Shown here in pieces: positions 1 to 42,854 of a stretch of 42,854 nt of DNA. Source of the DNA: a virus; the IMG/VR virus record IMGVR_UViG_3300009773_000002. One strand, 5' to 3'. A program made the position numbers and the translations under genes. The notes beneath the pieces are model-generated. The model searched no databases, was not told the DNA's origin, and was given only the letters and a program-made list of their open reading frames with translations. Every line of letters starts with the position of its first letter. Position 1 is the stretch's first letter.

Positions 1-123
1 AGAACGAAAGCCGATGCTTCAAGCATCAAAGAAAGGAAGGTACACAATGAGTAACTATCATATTGGACGCAGAAGCCCGATGCTATGTCAAACAATCAAT
101 CAGTCAGAATCAGACGTGCAGTA
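1..123. repeat. Terminal direct repeat, copy 1 (identical to 42732-42854). Closure overlap of a circular or circularly permuted phage genome.
   Basis: agaacgaaagccgatgcttcaagc...cagacgtgcagta at 1-123 is repeated base for base at the window end. Confidence 0.9.
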
Positions 124-190
124 TCAAATCAGATATCAAGTTGAAGAATCAAAAGCAGAGTCGCATATGTGGCGGCAATACGGAAAGTGA
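47..190 (+). CDS. Small hypothetical early protein (47 aa, MSNYHIGRRSPMLCQ...)
   Basis: ATG at 47 has AAAGGAAGG about 8 nt upstream, and 47 codons run to TGA 188-190. It shares the conserved leader seen before other early genes. It is below the ORF-track size cut-off and competes with the TTG-start ORF 63-449. Confidence 0.5.
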   Translation: MSNYHIGRRSPMLCQTINQSESDVQYQIRYQVEESKAESHMWRQYGK

Positions 191-200
191 GGGAAAGAAA

Positions 201-449
201 ATGAAGATACATAAAGCAAGGGCGTCCGCATATGACAGCGTTAGTAATGATTCGATTTATCATTATATCCGACAGTATGTCAATAAAATAGCAAGTGACA
301 TCGAGCCGGCAGAAGATGGAGCGGGCAACAGTTACAAACAGAAGCGGGAGCAATTCGACAAGGCGAATCGGATACAATTAAAAGCAATTGCGGCAGAACT
401 GGAAACAGTCACCAAGCGGCTGGATTATATGTTATATGGGAGGTATTGA
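201..449 (+). CDS. Hypothetical early protein (82 aa, MKIHKARASAYDS...)
   Basis: Internal ATG of track ORF 63-449, preceded by GAGGGAAAG. A hairpin plus T-run follows at 481-510. Confidence 0.55.
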   Translation: MKIHKARASAYDSVSNDSIYHYIRQYVNKIASDIEPAEDGAGNSYKQKREQFDKANRIQLKAIAAELETVTKRLDYMLYGRY

Positions 450-480: not shown

Positions 481-510
481 AAAAGGCGGTTAGAAATAGC
501 CGCTTTTTTG
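481..510 (+). terminator. Putative intrinsic terminator ending the first early transcription unit
   Basis: In AAAAGGCGG-ttagaaatag-CCGCTTTTTT, the GCGG/CCGC core is extended by A:T pairs and followed by a T-run. It lies just after the stop at 449. Confidence 0.5.
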
Positions 511-2023: not shown

Positions 2024-2040
2024 TCACGAGCCTTACGCCG

Positions 2041-2078
2041 CCGGACGTATTCCGGCACAAACCCGCAAGGGTAGAACG
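2041..2078 (+). promoter_or_regulatory. Two-hairpin intergenic RNA module, copy C
   Basis: GCCGGA-cgtat-TCCGGC, then ACAA, then ACCC-GCAA-GGGT, then AGAAC. Same layout as copies at 42392-42435 and 42693-42736. Confidence 0.55.
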
Positions 2079-2109
2079 GAAGCACGAAAAGAAAGAGAGG
2101 GGTAAAAAG

Positions 2110-4822: not shown

Positions 4823-5097
4823 ATGGAAACGAAAAAGTACATATTCAGAGGAGACCGTTCAGGCGTGTTTTATGGCGAGATTGCCGAGCGTAACGGTCAA
4901 GAGGTCACAATCAAGAATTGTCGTAGGCTGTGGTACTGGAACGGCGCGGCGAGCCTTTCGGAACTGGCGTTGACCGGAACAAAAAAACCGAACGAATGCA
5001 AATTCACCGTAACCGTGCCGACGCTACAGATATTGGATGGTATCGAAATTATTCCGGTATCCGAAGCGGCACAAGCGTCTATTGAGGGGGTATCGGT

Positions 5098-5110
<13 letters not shown>
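4823..5110 (+). CDS. Hypothetical protein (95 aa)
   Basis: Track ORF. AAGGAG RBS. Confidence 0.7.
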
Positions 5111-5700
<590 letters not shown>

Positions 5701-7295: not shown

Positions 7296-7681
7296 ATAAC
7301 GTTACACTAATCGGACGGCTGACAAAAGACCCGGAGGTCAAGAGCACTCAAAGCGGAAAGAGTTCGCTAGGATTCACGATTGCCGTTGAGCGTCCGACTA
7401 AAGACAGAACCGCCGACTTTATTAACTGCGTGGCATGGGAACAGACCGCAAACATTATCGGACAATACTTTGTAAAGGGATCGAGAATCGGAATCGTCGG
7501 AGCAATACAGTCACGATCATGGGCGGGCGTGGACGGTAAGCGCGTATATGTTACCGAGGTTCTGGTGAATCGGGTTGAGTTTATCGACCGAAAGCAGGAC
7601 AGAGAGCGGTTGCAAGGCGATGAATCGCCCGTATCATCAATCGAGATGGACGAAGATATAGATGCACCGTTTAGCCTTTAA
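7292..7681 (+). CDS. ssb: Single-stranded DNA-binding protein
   Basis: MNNVTLIGRLTKDPE OB-fold N-terminus and an acidic C-terminal tip DEDIDAPF. Confidence 0.9.
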   Translation: MNNVTLIGRLTKDPEVKSTQSGKSSLGFTIAVERPTKDRTADFINCVAWEQTANIIGQYFVKGSRIGIVGAIQSRSWAGVDGKRVYVTEVLVNRVEFIDRKQDRERLQGDESPVSSIEMDEDIDAPFSL

Positions 7682-7695
7682 CGGAGGAGGATAAC

Positions 7696-8001
7696 ATGGA
7701 CGAGGTAAAGGGAAAAATTCTACGAGAATTACAGGAAGCGGCGGGAAACGCCGAGTGGTCGTCCTCACGCGAAGAGTTGATGTATAAAACAGGAGTAAGT
7801 GACCGACAAGTACGACGTGCCATCCATGAGTTGCGACGCGACGGGTATAAGATCATATCGTCACCTGACTGTGTCGGTTATTGGCTCGGAACATCCGAGG
7901 AGTGGAACAATTTTTGCGAGAAACAACGCTCAAAGGGGATCGCAGGAATGTTCAGAAAGACCACGGAATATGATAAGCAACTTCGGATCGTAGCAGAATG
8001 A
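7696..8001 (+). CDS. Winged-helix DNA-binding protein (101 aa)
   Basis: TGVSDRQVRRAIHELRRDGYKI helix-turn-helix/wing pattern. GGAGGAGG RBS. Confidence 0.55.
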   Translation: MDEVKGKILRELQEAAGNAEWSSSREELMYKTGVSDRQVRRAIHELRRDGYKIISSPDCVGYWLGTSEEWNNFCEKQRSKGIAGMFRKTTEYDKQLRIVAE

Positions 8002-8126
8002 ACTGTTGGAAAACGTGTGAACATTGTGGTGGTTGTTCTCTGTGCGAGGACTGTGAGAACGGACAATACTATGAGCCGGCACAAATAGAAATTGTAAACC
8101 TGCCGGAAAAGGAGATTAAAAAATGA
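7998..8126 (+). CDS. Small Cys-rich protein (42 aa, MNCWKTCEHCGGCSLCEDCENG...)
   Basis: ATGA overlap with the upstream gene. Seven Cys in the first 19 residues. Below the track cut-off. Confidence 0.45.
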   Translation: MNCWKTCEHCGGCSLCEDCENGQYYEPAQIEIVNLPEKEIKK

Positions 8127-8180
8127 ACAAAAGAACCGTCATTTCGGTTATCGCACAAGACAAAGAAGGGAGATAAGCAA

Positions 8181-8423
8181 ATGAGCAAATACTATTTTAC
8201 ATTCGGATCGGCGGGGCAACTGTATTGCGGCGGGTGGATTATCATTCACGCAAAAAGTGATCGCGATGCAAGGGAGAAGTTTAAGAAATATTACGGCGTG
8301 AAGGGAAGCACGAGAGAAGGATTGATGAACTTCGCCTTTTCGTACACCGAACCAGAGTTTCAATCAACCGATATGCCGACAAAGGGAAACATGGGTGCGT
8401 TCTGTTGGAACGAGATCGTATGA
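8181..8423 (+). CDS. Hypothetical protein (80 aa)
   Basis: Track ORF. GAAGGGAG RBS. Confidence 0.7.
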   Translation: MSKYYFTFGSAGQLYCGGWIIIHAKSDRDAREKFKKYYGVKGSTREGLMNFAFSYTEPEFQSTDMPTKGNMGAFCWNEIV

Positions 8424-8437
8424 GAAGGGAGACGAAA

Positions 8438-8590
8438 ATGTTTGAAGTGCTATGTAGCGGATGCGGAAAGAAAATCGGGATTGACGGTTATACGTATAAG
8501 CACGAGAACTATTGTGAGAAGTGCTTTGAAAAGACCGTATACCCGGCGCTTAAGCGGTCATGTATGGACGATTATTATGAGCAGTTATAA
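8438..8590 (+). CDS. Small zinc-ribbon-like protein (50 aa, CSGC...CEKC)
   Basis: Internal ATG of track ORF 8405-8590, with GAAGGGAG upstream. Confidence 0.55.
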   Translation: MFEVLCSGCGKKIGIDGYTYKHENYCEKCFEKTVYPALKRSCMDDYYEQL

Positions 8591-8604
8591 GAAGGGAGAC
8601 AGCC

Positions 8605-8952
8605 GTGTACATTCCAAGCGGAGACTATCTTACGATACAGCAGTACATGAAGCGTGTGGGTGTTGAATCACGGTCAACGATCATGTCTGCGATCAAATCA
8701 AACCGACTAGGCGGGGCAATAAACATATCGAAAGGCGTATGGATTATCCCGGAGGATGCGGTAATCAAGACAAAGATTCTTAAACACGGACACGCCATAG
8801 GGGTAAACGCATGGATGCGCGGCGAGATCGAGCATCAAAACGAGTTGAAGAATTGGGAACTCCGAAAGCGGCAGTTGTTTCAGATATGGAAAGAGCAAAA
8901 CGGAATCGTTGACGACACGCGAGGAGAGTCACCGCATGACGATTTGGATTAA
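8605..8952 (+). CDS. HTH DNA-binding protein (115 aa, GTG start)
   Basis: LTIQQYMKRVGVESRSTIMSAIKSNRL helix-turn-helix pattern. GAAGGGAG lies before the GTG. Confidence 0.55.
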   Translation: MYIPSGDYLTIQQYMKRVGVESRSTIMSAIKSNRLGGAINISKGVWIIPEDAVIKTKILKHGHAIGVNAWMRGEIEHQNELKNWELRKRQLFQIWKEQNGIVDDTRGESPHDDLD

Positions 8953-9187
8953 CAACACGCCGTATCCGAACATTCTTTACGAGGAAAAAGATATTGCGAC
9001 AATCTTCAACGTCGCGCCGTATGCAATCTATAAACTCGGAGATAGAATCCCGCGGCACAAACTCTTGACGCTTGATACGGGCGGAAACGTCGTTGAACTT
9101 TACTTCTATAATCCTTATGAGATCATCCATTGGATTGAAGAAAACAAGGACAGAAAAGAATCGGAGATATTTTGGAAGCAGAAATGA
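8936..9187 (+). CDS. Hypothetical protein (83 aa)
   Basis: ATG after GAGGAGAG, in frame with track ORF 8909-9187. Confidence 0.6.
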   Translation: MTIWINNTPYPNILYEEKDIATIFNVAPYAIYKLGDRIPRHKLLTLDTGGNVVELYFYNPYEIIHWIEENKDRKESEIFWKQK

Positions 9188-9193
9188 AAGCAG

Positions 9194-9523
9194 GTGTGTG
9201 TCTTGATAAGTAAAAACTCAAGCATCGGAATCACCTATCAGGTTGTGGTCGTAAACCACGGCACGCTGAAAGGGTGTCCGGTTACGCGGTTTATGATACG
9301 GGATATTATTCAAGGGCTTCACGGAGAAACGATTACATATTGGGCGTCTGTGTTTGAAAACCTTGACCTGAACGTTGGCGACTCGGTGCGGTTCATAGAC
9401 ATTGACAACATTACCGTGTCGTATGACCCGGAACGGAAAAAGGTAAACCATTTTTTCAATGCGGTAGTAGATGTTATTCCGAACAAATCGGTCGAAAACG
9501 ATGAACAGAAGGGAGAAAACTAA
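9194..9523 (+). CDS. Hypothetical protein (about 106-109 aa; start uncertain, GTG 9194 or TTG 9203)
   Basis: Track ORF fills the gap between flanking genes. No ATG start has an RBS. Confidence 0.5.
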   Translation: MCVLISKNSSIGITYQVVVVNHGTLKGCPVTRFMIRDIIQGLHGETITYWASVFENLDLNVGDSVRFIDIDNITVSYDPERKKVNHFFNAVVDVIPNKSVENDEQKGEN

Positions 9524-9526
9524 GCC

Positions 9527-9796
9527 ATGACGCAGGATGAAATGGAATACAAAGAACTTGCAAACGCAATTATATTACAGGCGGTTAAGGATTACGAAAA
9601 GGACTATGCAGACCTTAAGACGCTCGTTGCCAACCAAGAAAACGAACATCAGCAACGATATCTTCGGCATTGCCTAGAAAAGATTGATTCGTTTTTTGAT
9701 AGCGAGTGGTGTGCCTCCTTGTCGCGCGACGATGTTTCTCGCTCATGGGAAAAGAAGAAGGCAGAAATACGCGAACGGATCGGGGAGGTAGAATGA
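9527..9796 (+). CDS. Hypothetical protein (89 aa)
   Basis: Track ORF. GAAGGGAG RBS. Confidence 0.7.
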   Translation: MTQDEMEYKELANAIILQAVKDYEKDYADLKTLVANQENEHQQRYLRHCLEKIDSFFDSEWCASLSRDDVSRSWEKKKAEIRERIGEVE

Positions 9797-10104
9797 AAAA
9801 AGCGTTTATTTGTTCCGCATACAGAGGAGACATCCAAAAGAACACGGAACGAGCAAAGCGATATTGCTTGACCGCGATTGATCATGGGTATGCGCCATTC
9901 GCGCCGCATCTTCTTTACCCTCAGTTTTTATGCGATGAGAGCAGAGCGGATCGATACGCGGGAATTCAGTGTGGGCTAGAGTTTTTGAAGTGTTGCGATA
10001 TTGTTTTGGTTTTTGGCGACATTACATACGGGATGAAAAAAGAGATTGACTTGGCGGCAGAATTAAAAATACCGATTGAATACATAGGAGGCGCGAATGA
10101 TTGA
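9793..10104 (+). CDS. DUF4406-like (nucleoside 2-deoxyribosyltransferase-fold) protein, paralogue 1
   Basis: MKKAFICSAYRGD...NTERAKRYC...GYAPFAPHLLYPQFL, about 70% identical to the product of 14169-14516. ATGA overlap start. Confidence 0.65.
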   Translation: MKKAFICSAYRGDIQKNTERAKRYCLTAIDHGYAPFAPHLLYPQFLCDESRADRYAGIQCGLEFLKCCDIVLVFGDITYGMKKEIDLAAELKIPIEYIGGAND

Positions 10105-10765: not shown

Positions 10766-11491
10766 ATGGCGGCTATCATGAGTAAAGACCCTGCATTCCT
10801 TTTCTATCCGTCCGACTTCTTGACGGGTACGATGTTCCTGTCGAATGAACAGGTCGGCGCGTACATACGACTCTTGTGCGCTCAACATCAGCAAGGACAT
10901 TTACCGCAACGCGCAATGGAAATGATGTGCGGCGGCATAGACGAGGAAGTATTTTCGAAGTTTGAGCAGGACGAGAAGGGTTTGTACTACAACAAACGGC
11001 TCGACAACGAATCAGAACGAAGAACGAACTATGTTAAGAGCCGAAGGAAAAACCTTGCTTGTGAGAAAAAAGAGTCTGATATATCCCATATGGACTCCCA
11101 TATGGGCGCCCATATGGCGCCCCATATGGAGAGCCATATGGCTCTCCATATGGAAAATAGAAATGAAAATGAAAATATAGATAAAACTAAGAGTAAGAGA
11201 ACACTATTTATTCCACCAACGGTTGATGAGGTGTCTGCCTATTGTCAAGAGCGACGGAACAGCATAAGCGCAGAAACGTTTGTGGACTTCTACACGTCAA
11301 AAAACTGGATGATTGGAAAGAACAAGATGAAGGATTGGAAGGCGAGTGTTCGGACATGGGAACGGAACCACAAGGAGCAATCGGCATCGCCAAAACAAAA
11401 CTTTAAGGGCGTGGAGTACAGCGACGAAAAATTAGCAGAGTTTGAGGACGATCCGAACGAACTGATTGAACGGTGGAGGGAGAAGACATGA
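10766..11491 (+). CDS. Replication initiator/organiser, DUF1376 (YdaU)-type N-domain plus phage replication C-domain. Alternative start 10778.
   Basis: PAFLFYPSDFLTGTMFLSNEQVGAYIRLLC N-domain. C-domain FIPPTVDEVSAYC...FVDFYTSKNWMIGKNKMKDWKASVRTWE. The linker is encoded by iterons. Confidence 0.7.
   Translation: MAAIMSKDPAFLFYPSDFLTGTMFLSNEQVGAYIRLLCAQHQQGHLPQRAMEMMCGGIDEEVFSKFEQDEKGLYYNKRLDNESERRTNYVKSRRKNLACEKKESDISHMDSHMGAHMAPHMESHMALHMENRNENENIDKTKSKRTLFIPPTVDEVSAYCQERRNSISAETFVDFYTSKNWMIGKNKMKDWKASVRTWERNHKEQSASPKQNFKGVEYSDEKLAEFEDDPNELIERWREKT
11086..11153. repeat. Iteron cluster 2: six CCATATGG palindromes at exact 12-bp phasing inside the initiator gene
   Basis: Starts at 11086, 11098, 11110, 11122, 11134 and 11146. 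An AT-rich stretch follows (aaaatagaaatgaaaatgaaaatatagataaaactaa). Confidence 0.85.
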
Positions 11492-12183: not shown

Positions 12184-12359
12184 CAGATAAACAGATGAAT
12201 AAAATCAATGCGATAATGTATGATCTAACATTATGTTATGACAAGGGATTTATAGAAAACAAAGCGGAAACCCTTGCATATCTTGCCGGAATTAAAGACA
12301 TTATGTCCATGCTAGGCTACACATGGAACGGCGCGGAGTTTGTGGAGGTTCAAAAATGA
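12180..12359 (+). CDS. Small hypothetical protein (59 aa)
   Basis: ATGA overlap with the upstream stop. In frame with track ORF 12087-12359. Confidence 0.55.
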   Translation: MTDKQMNKINAIMYDLTLCYDKGFIENKAETLAYLAGIKDIMSMLGYTWNGAEFVEVQK

Positions 12360-13708
12360 TCAAGGTAGCGAGTCTGTTTGATGGGATTGGCGGAACGCTG
12401 TTATCGGCTGCGATGTGCGGTATTGAGCCTGTATGGGCAAGCGAGATAGAGCCGTTTCCAATCAAGGTAACAAAGCACCATTTCCCGAACGTTAAGCACT
12501 TGGGCGATATTACAAAAATAAACGGTGCAGAAGTTGAGCCAGTTGACATTATTGTTGGCGGTTCGCCTTGTCAAGATTTGAGTGTAGCCGGGAAAAGAGC
12601 CGGAATGAAGCACGCAGAATTTGGTGACGAAGAAACAACAAGAAGCGGTTTGTTCATGGAACAAATACGAATTGTAAAGGAGATGCGAAATGCAACAAAT
12701 AAGCCTCGATTTATGGTCTGGGAAAACGTGCCCGGAGCCTTCAGTTCAAACAACGGAGAGGATTTTAGAGCAGTCCTCGAAGAAACGGCGAGGGTTGCCG
12801 ATCCCACAGTATCAATTCCTCGATCTGTCAACGGCTGGGCAAATGCTGGGAGCATCTTGGCAGACGGATTTACCATATCATGGCGCACGTTCGATGCACA
12901 ATACTGGGGAGTACCCCAACGTCGTCGTAGAATCTACCTTGTCGCAGATTTTGGAGGACAATCCGCACCCGAAATATTATTTGAGTGCCAAAGCGTGCCT
13001 AGGGATTCTGCGGAGAGCCGAAGCGAGGGGCAAGGAATTGCCGGAGATGTTGAAAGAGGCGTTAATAGCGCAGAGCCAATAGTCTTAAATGATCAGGGCG
13101 GCTCCGTAATGGACGTATCTAACAAAGCAGCAACGCTTAGAGCGGAAATGCACGGACATGTCCCCGTTGTCTGCTACGGCATCTCGTCATACGCATCAAA
13201 CGCCATGAAATCCAGCAATCCGCACAGCGGTATATACGAAGCCGACACGTCCAGAACGCTTGACGCAAACGGCGGCAATCCAGCGTGCAATCAAGGGGGC
13301 ATTTGCATTGTAAGCGAGCCAACACTAATAGAAATGACATCTACAAAAAATACAATCGTTGAAGATGGTATATGTCCAACACTAACGGCAAGAATGGGAA
13401 CAGGCGGCAATCAGGTAAATGCGGTGTGCTCTTCGGTTGGTGGTTTCATGCAAACAATTGTTGAAAAGTCGCCCACCTTGATGGCAAGAGATTACAAAGA
13501 CCCTCATGTTGTTTCTCAACAAAATAAACAAGTCCGCCGATTAACGCCCTTGGAGTGTTGCAGACTCCAGGGCTACCCTGACGGATGGACAGATATACCA
13601 GGGGCAAGCGATTCAGCAAGATATAAAGCCCTGGGCAACAGTTTCGCAATTCCAAATATATTATTCGTAATTCAAAAATGTGTTGAAATGATGAGGTGTG
13701 AAGTATGA
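12356..13708 (+). CDS. Orphan DNA cytosine-C5 methyltransferase with a long variable (target-recognition) region (450 aa)
   Basis: Motifs FDGIGG (I), GGSPCQDLS (IV), ENVPG (VI), QRRRRIYLV (VIII) and GNSFAIP (X). Confidence 0.9.
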   Translation: MIKVASLFDGIGGTLLSAAMCGIEPVWASEIEPFPIKVTKHHFPNVKHLGDITKINGAEVEPVDIIVGGSPCQDLSVAGKRAGMKHAEFGDEETTRSGLFMEQIRIVKEMRNATNKPRFMVWENVPGAFSSNNGEDFRAVLEETARVADPTVSIPRSVNGWANAGSILADGFTISWRTFDAQYWGVPQRRRRIYLVADFGGQSAPEILFECQSVPRDSAESRSEGQGIAGDVERGVNSAEPIVLNDQGGSVMDVSNKAATLRAEMHGHVPVVCYGISSYASNAMKSSNPHSGIYEADTSRTLDANGGNPACNQGGICIVSEPTLIEMTSTKNTIVEDGICPTLTARMGTGGNQVNAVCSSVGGFMQTIVEKSPTLMARDYKDPHVVSQQNKQVRRLTPLECCRLQGYPDGWTDIPGASDSARYKALGNSFAIPNILFVIQKCVEMMRCEV

Positions 13709-14166
13709 CTGAAACAGAAGTCAGGTTCATGCTCGAAAACCGCGCCGATATCATCAAGTCTATTGCGGTCATGTCAAAAATGCACAGAGAAACAAAAGCG
13801 GAAGTCATCGAGGCGGTTTGTCTGTCCGCGACATGCTACGACAAAGACCGCATCCAATCCGGCGGCGATGGCGACACCGTGACACAGACGATCTTAAAGG
13901 CGGAAAGAGAATACAGAGACTGTTTGAAATCGCATAGCGACATCCAGTTTTTATGCGAAACGCGAGAGCGGCAGCTGAGAGATTTAGACATGTGTCGGCG
14001 GAATCTGCTACAAATCGCGCAAGAGATACTACGACTTAGATTTGATGAAAAGTATACGGTAGCGGAGACAGCGACGTACACAGGCAGACCGAGCCGGACG
14101 ATAGGCAAGATAACAACGGAGTCGATTAAAACAATAGCGGGGCTGATGAGCCGGAAGGGGTGGTAG
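13705..14166 (+). CDS. Sigma-region-4-like / ArpU-RinA-type transcriptional regulator (candidate late activator)
   Basis: 153 aa. C-terminal HTH-like YTVAETATYTGRPSRTIGKITTESIKTIA. The position is typical of late regulators in Firmicutes phages. Confidence 0.45.
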   Translation: MTETEVRFMLENRADIIKSIAVMSKMHRETKAEVIEAVCLSATCYDKDRIQSGGDGDTVTQTILKAEREYRDCLKSHSDIQFLCETRERQLRDLDMCRRNLLQIAQEILRLRFDEKYTVAETATYTGRPSRTIGKITTESIKTIAGLMSRKGW

Positions 14167-14168
14167 GG

Positions 14169-14516
14169 ATGAAAAAAGCGTTTATATGTTCGGCATACAG
14201 CGGAGACATCGAAAAGAACACGGAACGAGCAAGGCGATACTGTTTGACCGCGCTAGATCATGGGTACGCGCCATTCGCTCCGCATCTTTTGTATCCGCAG
14301 TTTTTGCGTGACAGCGGGGCGGGTCGATACATAGGGATTCAATGCGGACTAGCGTTTCTGAAGTGTTGCGACATCTTGCTAGTGTTCGGCGCGGTGACAG
14401 CCGGGATGCATACAGAAATTGAAGCGGCAGAAAGGCTAGGGATGGAGATCGAATATATCGGTGGGATTAGCGACGATGCTTTATATGTGCAATCCAAAAA
14501 TAAACACCGAGTGTAA
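14169..14516 (+). CDS. DUF4406-like protein, paralogue 2
   Basis: MKKAFICSAYSGDIEKNTERARRYCLTALDHGYAPFAPHLLYPQFL. The 5' half is close to identical at DNA level to 9793-9930. Confidence 0.65.
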   Translation: MKKAFICSAYSGDIEKNTERARRYCLTALDHGYAPFAPHLLYPQFLRDSGAGRYIGIQCGLAFLKCCDILLVFGAVTAGMHTEIEAAERLGMEIEYIGGISDDALYVQSKNKHRV

Positions 14517-40675: not shown

Positions 40676-41029
40676 TTATCCGCTTCCTTCCAAAATCTCT
40701 CGTATCGCCTGTACCTGCTCCTCTGTAAGAGAATCCATCTTCGACTTTAGCCAAATTGCCATGAGTTTCTTTTGGATACTTGCCCCGCGAAGTGATATCT
40801 CTACCTTCTCAATCTCCGCAAACCGCAACAACTGTACCGTTGTTACATCTAAATTATACAGCCGAAGGATCTTGTCGGTAAGTGTAGATGGAACCTTACG
40901 CCTGCCGCTCATTACAAAACTAAGAAACCCGGCGGATACCCCCACCTTGTCCGCCATGTCCTTCTGGCTCTCTCTCGCCTGAAATTGTATCTCGCGCAAT
41001 ATCTCCCCGTATTGTGTCATTCCCTCCAT
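40676..41029 (-). CDS. XRE-family helix-turn-helix regulator (117 aa)
   Basis: QKDMADKVGVSAGFLSFVMSGRRKVP HTH pattern. AGGAGG RBS. Confidence 0.8.
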   Translation of the reverse strand: MEGMTQYGEILREIQFQARESQKDMADKVGVSAGFLSFVMSGRRKVPSTLTDKILRLYNLDVTTVQLLRFAEIEKVEISLRGASIQKKLMAIWLKSKMDSLTEEQVQAIREILEGSG

Positions 41030-41913: not shown

Positions 41914-41962
41914 GATGGTTCGGCGAGAAAAATAGCGAGCGGGAAGTATATATAAATTTGGA

Positions 41963-41994
41963 GGGGGGGGGCATCAGTCCGCCGTAGCCCCCCC
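41963..41994. repeat. G9 tract and C7 tract forming a potential hairpin in the divergent control region
   Basis: G run 41963-41971, then catcagtccgccgtag, then C run 41988-41994. Confidence 0.8.
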
Positions 41995-42046
41995 GTATAT
42001 GATGAAGGGCATACAAGTAATCATACAAAAAAGAAAAAAATTAACA

Positions 42047-42106
42047 CCGGCTCAAAAAAATAGCATTACAATCATACAACCATGAGCCGGATCAGGACGA
42101 TCCGGC
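42047..42106 (+). promoter_or_regulatory. Two mutually exclusive hairpins sharing GCCGG
   Basis: CCGGCTCA (42047-42054) pairs with TGAGCCGG (42083-42090). Alternatively GCCGGATC (42086-42093) pairs with GATCCGGC (42099-42106). Confidence 0.45.
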
Positions 42107-42112
42107 GCCTAC

Positions 42113-42144
42113 TTGTGCAACATGCACAATAAAGTTTGTGCAAT
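42113..42144. promoter_or_regulatory. Operator-like sites: perfect 7-3-7 palindrome TTGTGCA-ACA-TGCACAA plus half-site TTTGTGCAAT
   Basis: Read directly. A second set is at 1011-1052. Confidence 0.6.
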
Positions 42145-42151
42145 CTGTCAA

Positions 42152-42179
42152 TTGTAATCGGCTGTGGACGTGCTACGAT
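42152..42179 (+). promoter_or_regulatory. Putative early promoter P_E1 (TTGTAA-16 nt-TACGAT)
   Basis: Same 8-bp offset from the operator half-site as P_E2. The match to consensus is weak (4/6 and 4/6). Confidence 0.35.
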
Positions 42180-42229
42180 TGAGGCAGATGAACGAAAGCA
42201 CAAGCCCTAGCAGGGCAGAAAGGCACAAA

Positions 42230-42373
42230 ATGAAACGCAAAAATAATGTAATTGGTATTGACGGAATGGTTAGGGCAATGCAATTGTACGGGTTTGAACA
42301 TGATGAAATAATGTCAATGCGGCAAGCAATGGTAACGGGCGATTTTTCAAAAATCCAGTTTGAATCAAATTGA
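42230..42373 (+). CDS. Small hypothetical early protein (47 aa, MKRKNNVIGIDGMVRAMQLYGFEHDEIMSMRQ...)
   Basis: ATG in frame with track ORF 42164-42373. It is preceded by AGAAAGGCACAAA, the same context as the ATGs at 42474 and 1133. Confidence 0.55.
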   Translation: MKRKNNVIGIDGMVRAMQLYGFEHDEIMSMRQAMVTGDFSKIQFESN

Positions 42374-42391
42374 CAACTAGTCCGTCGCTTT

Positions 42392-42435
42392 GAGGGTCTG
42401 AGCGGATCACCCTCACCAACCCGCAAGGGTAGAAC
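42392..42435 (+). promoter_or_regulatory. Two-hairpin intergenic RNA module, copy A
   Basis: GAGGGT-ctgagcggatc-ACCCTC, ACCA, ACCC-GCAA-GGGT, AGAAC. Confidence 0.55.
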
Positions 42436-42473
42436 AAAAACACACAAGCGCGAAAAGCGCGGAAAGGCACAAG

Positions 42474-42680
42474 ATGGTATCATATGAATTTTCGCTATTA
42501 GCAACAGGTTGCAAAACGGTCGAAGAATTTACAGATGCTTTTTATGACAAAAAGCCTGTACATTACACAACATCAAACATAAGAAAAGAATATTGCGACA
42601 GATGTCAAAATATGGATTGTGAGAACTGTTTCATCCATGATAGCCTTTTCACAATATATGAAGAAAATCCGTTTGCATAG
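42474..42680 (+). CDS. Small Cys-rich early protein (68 aa, ...CDRCQNMDCENC...)
   Basis: Track ORF. GGAAAGGCACAAG lies before the ATG. Confidence 0.65.
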   Translation: MVSYEFSLLATGCKTVEEFTDAFYDKKPVHYTTSNIRKEYCDRCQNMDCENCFIHDSLFTIYEENPFA

Positions 42681-42692
42681 TTCCTACGCCTT

Positions 42693-42736
42693 GAGGGTCT
42701 GAGCGGATCACCCTCACCAGTCCGCAAGGGCAGAAC
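42693..42736 (+). promoter_or_regulatory. Two-hairpin intergenic RNA module, copy B (runs into the terminal repeat)
   Basis: GAGGGT-ctgagcggatc-ACCCTC, ACCA, GTCC-GCAA-GGGC, AGAAC. Confidence 0.55.
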
Positions 42737-42854
42737 GAAAGCCGATGCTTCAAGCATCAAAGAAAGGAAGGTACACAATGAGTAACTATCATATTGGACG
42801 CAGAAGCCCGATGCTATGTCAAACAATCAATCAGTCAGAATCAGACGTGCAGTA
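42732..42854. repeat. Terminal direct repeat, copy 2 (identical to 1-123)
   Basis: Exact 123-bp identity with the window start. Confidence 0.9.
42778..42854 (+). CDS. 5' part of the same gene as 47-190 (duplicate caused by the window overlap)
   Basis: Lies inside the terminal repeat. Confidence 0.5.
   Translation, partial: MSNYHIGRRSPMLCQTINQSESDVQ

Follow-up and report, generated by a model that had tools for sequence, protein, structure and literature searches.

A Portable Two-Hairpin RNA Module Between the Early Genes of Uncultivated Phages

The early genes of the virus record IMGVR_UViG_3300009773_000002 are separated in three places by a small RNA element made of two hairpins, here called the module, whose copies we designate A, B, and C; "the window" refers throughout to the whole stretch of DNA that was analyzed (42,854 nt). 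The module is a discrete, portable unit of ~40 nt, and its structure is that of the + strand, the strand of the messenger RNA (mRNA). We tentatively propose, with a confidence that falls just short of an even chance, that it is intercistronic punctuation that processes or stabilizes the early polycistronic mRNA.

Fold and Conserved Bases

A preliminary description, made from the letters of the window, had listed three same-strand intergenic copies with a shared layout, and the sequences read as described. Copy A lies at 42392–42435 and copy B at 42693–42736, whereas copy C, given as 2041–2078, was off by one and occupies 2040–2077. The 15-mer CCGCAAGGGNAGAAC has three exact + strand matches in the window; when up to two mismatches are allowed there are four, against 0.24 expected, a number reached in 0 of 100 shuffles. 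Copies A and B form a 59-nt direct repeat with 88% identity; therefore, the compensatory change between their second hairpins, which had been offered as an argument for RNA function, amounts to a single event and is little proof on its own within this genome. In the near-identical phage L117, hairpin 2 of copy B reads GTCC..GGGT. Once relatives are added, the covariation is solid.

Further copies were collected by several routes. The DUF1351 protein of the window led to the near-identical phages L117 and L118 and to L120 and L122, whose DUF1351 proteins are 87% and 63% identical to it, and homologues of the protein encoded after copy B (g3; Table 1) led to L273–L275, L359, L360, and L362. A motif scan of JGI metagenome contigs gave 80 loci, only 7 of which were true. 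A covariance model built from the first 16 copies recovered the diverged copies at L122 7203–7266 and L128 2817–2879, and an exact-match scan with hairpin 1 of copy C, which recurs in both of these, found a full module in L279, an unrelated phage contig that has only a weak terminase match in common with the window. The final set comprises 21 distinct copies, which come from metagenomic relatives and from two phage contigs that are not related, and all structure statistics refer to a hand-registered alignment of these.

Beyond this set, blastn of the region against GenBank phages gave 0 matches, a 15-mer scan of IMG/VR gave chance matches only and refined motif scans of it no true copy, and a motif-pattern scan of the GTDB species genomes (185,579) gave neither a true copy nor an array. 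Further exact-sequence scans with the hairpin-1 stems found no additional module, and a homologue search with the gene downstream of the L279 copy returned only that gene. As far as these collections show, the module is confined to a small set of uncultivated phages. One covariance-model match in the window (13087–13149; 17.6 bits, E 0.02) was rejected as noise; it lies inside the open reading frame (ORF) 12323–13708 and has no hairpins.

Read from its 5′ end, the module comprises (A)CG, then, a few bases further on, a 6-bp hairpin that begins with G, ends with C, and carries CG in its loop, the linker ACCA, and a second hairpin of 4–5 bp with a GNRA loop. Hairpin 1 has 6 bp in every copy, is 98.4% paired, and shows double changes at four of its six pairs, being built from seven different stems (GAGGGT/ACCCTC, GGCAGT/ACTGCC, GCCGGA/TCCGGC, GACGGG/CCCGTC, GGCAGG/CCTGCC, GGCCGT/ACGGCC, and the G·U variant GAGGGT/ACCCTT). 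In hairpin 2 the paired fraction is 95.3%, three of five pairs show double changes, and L279 has an unrelated stem, ACGGC/GCCGT, with a GAAA loop. The covariation score was matched by 0 of 500 shuffles, slid controls were 29–48% paired, RNAalifold recovered both hairpins unprompted, and the folding energy of the core ranges from −14 to −19 kcal/mol. Pairs of the G·U type are found solely on the + strand (GTCC/GGGC, GTCC/GGGT, and GAGGGT/ACCCTT); since they would read C·A on the opposite strand, the structure is that of the + strand.

What stays constant while the stems vary is a set of unpaired bases, namely ACCA, the CG in the loop of hairpin 1, and the upstream CG. The ACCA linker, which the preliminary description had not singled out, is the strongest conserved single-stranded feature and is present in 19 of the 21 copies; copy C has ACAA and L128b has ACCG instead. 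L128b is also the only copy whose hairpin-2 loop (CACG) is not GNRA. Hairpin 1 starts with G throughout and ends with C except in L274, where U makes a G·U closing pair, and 16 copies have U directly before it. Because ACCA, the loop CG, and the GNRA loop are conserved, these fixed bases point to recognition by a factor or to a tertiary fold, beyond a passive hairpin. An H-type pseudoknot, in which the upstream CGCUU would pair with GAGCG of the loop (or ACG with CGU), was considered and not adopted: its partners are conserved and 81.7% paired with zero covariation, and CGCCUU variants break one pair in five copies.

Several known classes of element were tried. The hairpins are not ordinary terminators, as had been stated, for the stems are followed by ACCA or AGAAC and not by a U-tract, and there is no + strand terminator-like site at any copy. 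A search of Rfam 15 gave 0 matches at gathering scores and no ribozyme or riboswitch family in E-value mode, in agreement with the statement that the module belongs to no known class of either kind; a clear Rfam hit, named beforehand as a refuting outcome, appeared at neither gathering nor permissive thresholds. Parses as a hammerhead, hepatitis delta virus-like, pistol, or twister ribozyme did not fit by hand, and Rfam was negative. No sigma-70-like promoter was predicted in or beside the copies, and promoter readings (sigma-70 and, by eye, sigma-54 and extracytoplasmic function) did not fit. The attC site of integrons was likewise rejected, as its core sites differ and there is no integrase. 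Covariation, + strand G·U pairs, and the lack of a U-tract and of an Rfam match thus bear out the view that this is an RNA-level element under selection.

Boundaries and Mobility of the Module

The preliminary description had also counted AGAAC and the purine-rich tract as parts of the module. These belong to the leader of the downstream gene, because a module-free, promoter-proximal leader carries them: the same leader follows directly after both sigma-70-like early promoters (P1 and P2), and L279 and L360 retain hairpin 1, ACCA, and the GNRA hairpin but lack AGAAC. The standard leader consists of GAAC, a purine tract, a small hairpin, an AGAAAGG Shine–Dalgarno (SD) sequence, and CACAAnATG, and it also follows the P1 promoters of relatives. 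The third hairpins reported directly before the SD in copies A and B are present (42449–42461 and 42744–42758) and lie within such leaders. The leader is found at 42190–42229, at 1098–1132, and at most early junctions, where it precedes many unrelated small genes; its small hairpin varies in sequence with pairing maintained. In some relatives one also finds a conserved 5′ leader of ~110 nt downstream of P1 (L162 ~400–510, L159 1–50, and L120 3500–3640), which contains a hairpin with a UGAUGA..UGAG-type loop.

With the leader set aside, the module starts at or just past the stop codon of a small accessory gene, the TAG of its flank being that stop codon in several relatives, and it ends where the leader of the next gene begins. 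At least eight different genes flank it on either side. When L162 and L159 are set against L120, the leaders are identical except for the module, which is a clean insertion of 39 nt. The distance from the upstream stop is 18 nt in copy A and 19 nt in L273; as the frame relative to that stop varies, the module is non-coding, and read-through into a coding extension is rejected.

Module alleles, leaders, and flanking genes occur in mosaic combinations, and hybrid copies are found in L165, L162b, and L198. One may therefore ask whether the module has any RNA function of its own or is a relic or hitchhiking linker that persists as a homology patch for cassette exchange. Besides the mosaicism and the hybrids, the absence of the module from L120 fits such a linker, as does its divergence beyond that of the adjacent gene (by our own count, identity between copy A and L273 is ~76% for the module and ~94% for g1), and a precedent exists in the stem-loops known as PeSLs (PMC2839356, PMC4122927). 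A neutral linker, however, would not have kept its pairing through seven stem sequences, nor its GNRA hairpin in L279, a phage that is itself unrelated and whose hairpin-2 stem is unrelated too, and we regard this explanation as unlikely.

Candidate Functions in the Early Message

L122 has no module at the junction that precedes its g3 homologue; a type II hammerhead ribozyme (4962–5015) stands there instead, flanked by two small early genes, whereas the window and at least five relatives have a module upstream of the same g3 gene. The ribozyme reads A-GUCC-GAA-ACGCC-GCAA-GGCGU-C / UACCCG-UUAGU-CGGGUA-CUGAUGA-GGAC; it scores 29.6 bits against Rfam RF02276, below the gathering score of 37 (E 0.001 in a 1.2-kb search), and its core (CUGAUGA, GAAA, and GUC) is complete. 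Degenerate hammerheads without the 5′ arm of stem III, which are probably dead, occur at other junctions of the same operons (L159 ~363–405 and L274 ~97–145), and their stem I covaries. The long-loop modules share their 5′ flank, TAGTCCGAAACGC, with the L122 hammerhead, whose 5′ part is identical to the first 13 nt of the flank consensus. Slots of this kind are thus filled either by a module or by a hammerhead, sometimes within one operon. In the window, RF02276 had no match at E ≤ 10 in 42100–42854 and none at E ≤ 1 over the whole length, with L122 4962–5015 as the positive control. The early region of L120 encodes an RtcB RNA ligase (7650–9266); RtcB joins 2′,3′-cyclic-phosphate and 5′-OH ends such as ribozyme cleavage leaves.

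Three functions had been offered for the module, namely a nut/boxB-like antitermination site, a processing or stabilizer site, and a binding site for a phage protein. The second fits best, given the hammerhead in the equivalent slot of L122, and the first fits poorly. Under the preferred reading, the module would be a portable cis-acting structure that punctuates the early polycistronic message: the transcript would be cut at or beside it, or exonucleolytic decay would stall there. The upstream cistron would then end in stable hairpins that block 3′ exonucleases, and the downstream cistron would begin with the same leader as promoter-initiated transcripts, because the sequence beyond hairpin 2 equals the leader of P1 and P2 and a cut after that hairpin would recreate a 5′ end like that of a primary transcript. 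Together with a host or phage nuclease, the module could do the job that the self-cleaving hammerhead does in the relative, so that cutting or stalling would determine how stable the individual early cistrons are and in what ratios they occur. As a side effect, module and leader together may act as homology patches for the exchange of gene cassettes.

Several points weigh against such a processing or stabilizing role. The module is dispensable, since L120, with a DUF1351 protein 87% identical to that of the window, has none at all. With stems of 6 and 4 bp, the module falls short of what RNase III needs, and a purely protective hairpin leaves the conservation of ACCA and of the GNRA loop unexplained. 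The fold with its conservation and covariation, its strand, position, and portability, and the hammerhead in the homologous slot are established by the data, but we infer cleavage or stabilization, the cut site, and the enzyme only from where the module stands. Pairs are broken in hairpin 1 of L165 and in hairpin 2 of L162b, L198, and L129; these copies may be metagenome assembly chimeras or tolerated defects, chimeras being conceivable because several of them come from samples holding many co-occurring variants. Lastly, the family is small, and about half of its copies were found with a pattern that fixes CACMA, CCGCAAGG, and AGAAC, which inflates the apparent sequence conservation at those places.

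An undescribed catalytic or nuclease-recruiting RNA that substitutes for the hammerheads would account for the shared slot in another way, and we rate this as improbable overall. It could take two forms. In the first, hairpin 1 and ACCA would mimic the acceptor stem, discriminator, and CCA of a transfer RNA (tRNA) and recruit host RNase P, which would cut 5′ of the first G and so separate the cistrons. Bacterial RNase P relies on U(−1)/G(+1) and on pairing of the 3′ RCCA with L15 of the P RNA, and it also cuts some mRNAs and phage RNAs, for example, hisCD and C4 (PMC10731613). The module is like such substrates in its G(+1) (21/21), closing C (all but L274), usual U(−1) (16/21), and ACCA right after the stem (19/21). 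It is unlike them in having a stem of 6 bp in place of the coaxial acceptor/T stack of ~12 bp and in having no T-loop; ARAGORN reports no tRNA- or transfer-messenger RNA-like gene, and the pseudoknot that might lengthen the helix (81.7% paired) does not covary. The variants ACAA (copy C) and ACCG (L128b) would weaken CCA pairing, and a U(−1) able to pair with A73 acts as an anti-determinant (PMC10731613). A host RNase P site is, on balance, quite unlikely.

In the second form, the module would itself be a small self-cleaving ribozyme of a new class, standing in for the hammerhead at these junctions. It shares slot and operons with the type II hammerhead and its relics, has covarying stems around about a dozen invariant unpaired bases within ~40–60 nt, and matches no known family. 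It shows no similarity to the catalytic core of any known class, however; most of the conserved loop of the long-loop copies is absent from the short-loop copies, L128b alters both ACCA and the GNRA loop, and the candidate pseudoknot shows no covariation. Moreover, conserved motifs near ribozymes mostly prove not to be ribozymes, and we consider a new ribozyme very doubtful.

With a nut/boxB-like site, the nascent RNA and a phage or host factor would let RNA polymerase pass through terminators. The loop of hairpin 2 is of the GNRA type that boxB also adopts, the terminator at 481–508 is downstream of both copies A and B, and the long-loop copies are preceded by CGCUUUGA, which resembles boxA. 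That sequence is absent from the short-loop copies (ACGAUU or ACGCC there), however, and the loop of L128b is CACG and not GNRA. Two copies stand within one 1-kb operon, copy C follows three genes and has no + strand terminator predicted downstream, and L120 has the same operon and, by our own reading, a near-identical terminator hairpin, yet no module. No N-like or other shared partner is apparent, for the early proteins lack Pfam or PHROG matches and the flanking genes vary between module phages. Antitermination is accordingly very improbable indeed.

Finally, the module could be the site of an RNA-binding protein that sets downstream translation, or a decoy RNA that titrates a host defense protein by mimicking a CRISPR repeat or antitoxin RNA. 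Solitary repeat units of phages do act as RNA anti-CRISPRs (PMC10651486). The conserved unpaired bases suit either case, as does the setting in a variable early operon of small orphan genes typical of anti-defense loci, and hairpin 2 with AGAAC weakly resembles Rfam CRISPR-DR18. That resemblance reaches 18.7 bits against a gathering score of 50 (E 1.8), and AGAAC, which carries it, lies outside the module. Furthermore, the motif pattern gave no array-like or host match in 185,579 species genomes, the sequence of hairpin 1 varies freely, which is unexpected for the mimic of a fixed repeat, and the module does not overlap the SD. We see only a slight chance of a protein-binding or decoy role.

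Phage early operons rich in small orphan genes are a home of anti-defense functions, and how expression is controlled cassette by cassette is poorly understood. As the module alternates with hammerheads at the same junctions, it offers a natural comparison of two ways to separate or stabilize cistrons. Should it cut itself or be cut by RNase P, it would be a new processing signal and a useful genetic part of ~40 nt; should it be only a stabilizer and recombination patch, it would illustrate modular punctuation cleanly, though in no unusual way, in a phage lineage of Gram-positive type.

Genomic Setting and Comparison with Known Systems

The features of the window that bear on the module are collected in Table 1. 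Positions 1–123 exactly repeat 42732–42854, a 123-bp duplication that begins exactly at the AGAAC of copy B; the window is therefore a circularly assembled phage-like genome with a true length of 42,731 bp, and copy B continues into positions 1–5. The + strand genes extend from ~42230 over the junction to ~15780 and include those for DUF1064, DUF1351, RecT, a metallo-beta-lactamase-fold protein, and SSB, and the − strand carries the terminase and structural genes. The layout of the first early operon is our own reading. After its terminator come iterons and an AT-rich region, then P2, three small genes, copy C, and the gene at 2110. The small early-operon proteins gave 0 matches to Pfam or PHROG.

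Table 1. Positions of the module copies, leaders, genes, and predicted signals in the window
Feature	Position	Strand	Details
Promoter P1	near 42110–42180	+	Predicted, sigma-70-like; first early operon
Module-free leader after P1	42190–42229	+	GAACGAAAGCACAA, GCCCT-agc-AGGGC, AGAAAGG; ATG 42230
g1	42230–42373	+	47 aa; ATG at 42230; between P1 and copy A
Copy A, 5′ flank	42378–42391	+	TAGTCCGTCGCTTT; part of the TAGTCC..ACGCTTT flank kept in long-loop copies
Copy A, hairpin 1	42392–42414	+	GAGGGT 42392–42397, 11-nt loop CTGAGCGGATC 42398–42408, ACCCTC 42409–42414
Copy A, linker	42415–42418	+	ACCA, single-stranded, conserved
Copy A, hairpin 2	42419–42430	+	ACCC-GCAA-GGGT, GNRA tetraloop
Leader of 68-aa gene	42431–42473	+	AGAAC 42431–42435, purine tract, hairpin CGCG-aaaag-CGCG, SD GGAAAGG; ATG 42474; not module
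g2	42474–42680	+	68 aa; between copies A and B; TAG stop 42678–42680
Copy B, 5′ flank	42679–42692	+	AGTTCCTACGCCTT; TAG 42678–42680 is the stop of the 68-aa gene
Copy B, hairpin 1	42693–42715	+	Same sequence as copy A
Copy B, linker	42716–42719	+	ACCA
Copy B, hairpin 2	42720–42731	+	GTCC-GCAA-GGGC; G:C and U·G replace A:U and C:G of copy A
Leader of 47-aa g3	42732–42777 (= 1–46)	+	AGAAC 42732–42736, hairpin GATGCT-tca-AGCATC, SD AAGGAAGG; ATG 42778
g3	47–190	+	Conserved 47-aa protein; after copy B; ATG 42778 = position 47
g4	201–449	+	After g3; last gene of first early operon
Intrinsic terminator	481–508	+	Predicted; closes operon P1, g1, copy A, g2, copy B, g3, g4
Promoter P2	1061–1088	+	Predicted, sigma-70-like; TTTACA-16-TG-GATAAT
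Copy C, hairpin 1	2040–2056	+	GCCGGA-cgtat-TCCGGC
Copy C, linker	2057–2060	+	ACAA, variant of ACCA
Copy C, hairpin 2	2061–2072	+	ACCC-GCAA-GGGT; core minimum free energy −16.3 kcal/mol, z −3.4
Leader of 96-aa gene	2073–2109	+	AGAAC 2073–2077 and purine-rich SD region; ATG 2110

Other repeats and possible control sites were seen in the same regions. Iteron-like arrays of CCATATGG repeats with 12-nt spacing lie at 522–590 and 11086–11176 and also in L120 (4395–4450); the first lies between the terminator of the first operon, which it closely follows, and an AT-rich stretch, a setting suggestive of a replication origin, and the second is inside the + strand gene region. Four copies of AATAGGACTTT, ~31–35 nt apart, occupy 882–1001 just upstream of P2 and resemble operators or a regulator-binding array. 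The near-palindromes TTGTGCAACATGCACAA and TTGTACAATATGCACAA and the half-site TTTGTGCAA, at 42103–42150 and 1010–1052, overlap both early promoters and are kept in L120, L122, L128, L273, and L359; both promoters probably share them as an operator for the helix-turn-helix protein encoded divergently (40676–41029). The divergent control region also holds a G-run/C-run hairpin, GGAGGGGGGGGGC..GCCCCCCCG (41960–41996), with a similar one in L120, L122, and L273. Farther away, a 154-nt direct repeat with 85% identity (9776–9929 and 14152–14305) lies in the + strand gene region, and a long GGCTCC repeat at 5122–5238 gives the 200-aa product of ORF 5098–5700 an N-terminal Gly-Ser run.

Among known systems, the RNase III sites of T7 and SP82 and the 3′ stabilizers of the repetitive extragenic palindrome (REP) type are repeated intercistronic hairpins that set transcript ends and segment stability. 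The module is like these in being a repeated hairpin element between early cistrons; however, RNase III sites need a helix of ~20 bp (about two turns), whereas the module has stems of 6 and 4–5 bp and conserves specific unpaired bases.

The nut sites of λ likewise place a small GNRA-type hairpin in early mRNA, and the long-loop copies carry the boxA-like CGCUUUGA. In λ, boxB has a 5-bp stem and a GNRA-like pentaloop, whereas hairpin 2 has 4–5 bp and a true GNRA tetraloop in 20 of 21 copies; boxA (CGCUCUUA-like) adjoins boxB in all sites, whereas CGCUUUGA is limited to the long-loop copies. There is one nut site per early operon, between promoter and terminators, kept wherever the terminator is kept, which does not hold for the module. 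The λ sites also have a cognate arginine-rich N protein encoded close by, and no N-like partner is apparent for the module.

The PeSLs of T4-like phages are short conserved stem-loops between small variable early ORFs, at which genes are swapped (PMC2839356, PMC4122927). The module also stands at the boundaries of indels and replacements, as seen from its eight or more flanking genes, the 39-nt indel relative to L120, and the hybrid alleles. It differs in that a PeSL combines a terminator-like stem-loop with an early promoter, whereas the module has two hairpins, the conserved ACCA, and no predicted promoter.

Hammerheads often flank single genes in prophages, and a role proposed for them there is to divide long phage transcripts into mRNAs of gene length (Perreault et al. 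2011, PMC3088659). Like the type II hammerheads of prophages, the module is intergenic, on the coding strand, and between single small genes of phage operons (PMC3088659); stem III of the hammerhead is a GCAA-capped hairpin, and the 5′ flank TAGTCCGAAACGC is common to both. Unlike them, the module has no CUGAUGA, no three-stem junction, and no Rfam hammerhead match, and self-cleavage could be attributed to it only by analogy. In kind, the module joins the known intercistronic phage RNA elements, that is, hammerheads, RNase III sites, and PeSLs; its fold and its conserved ACCA are new.

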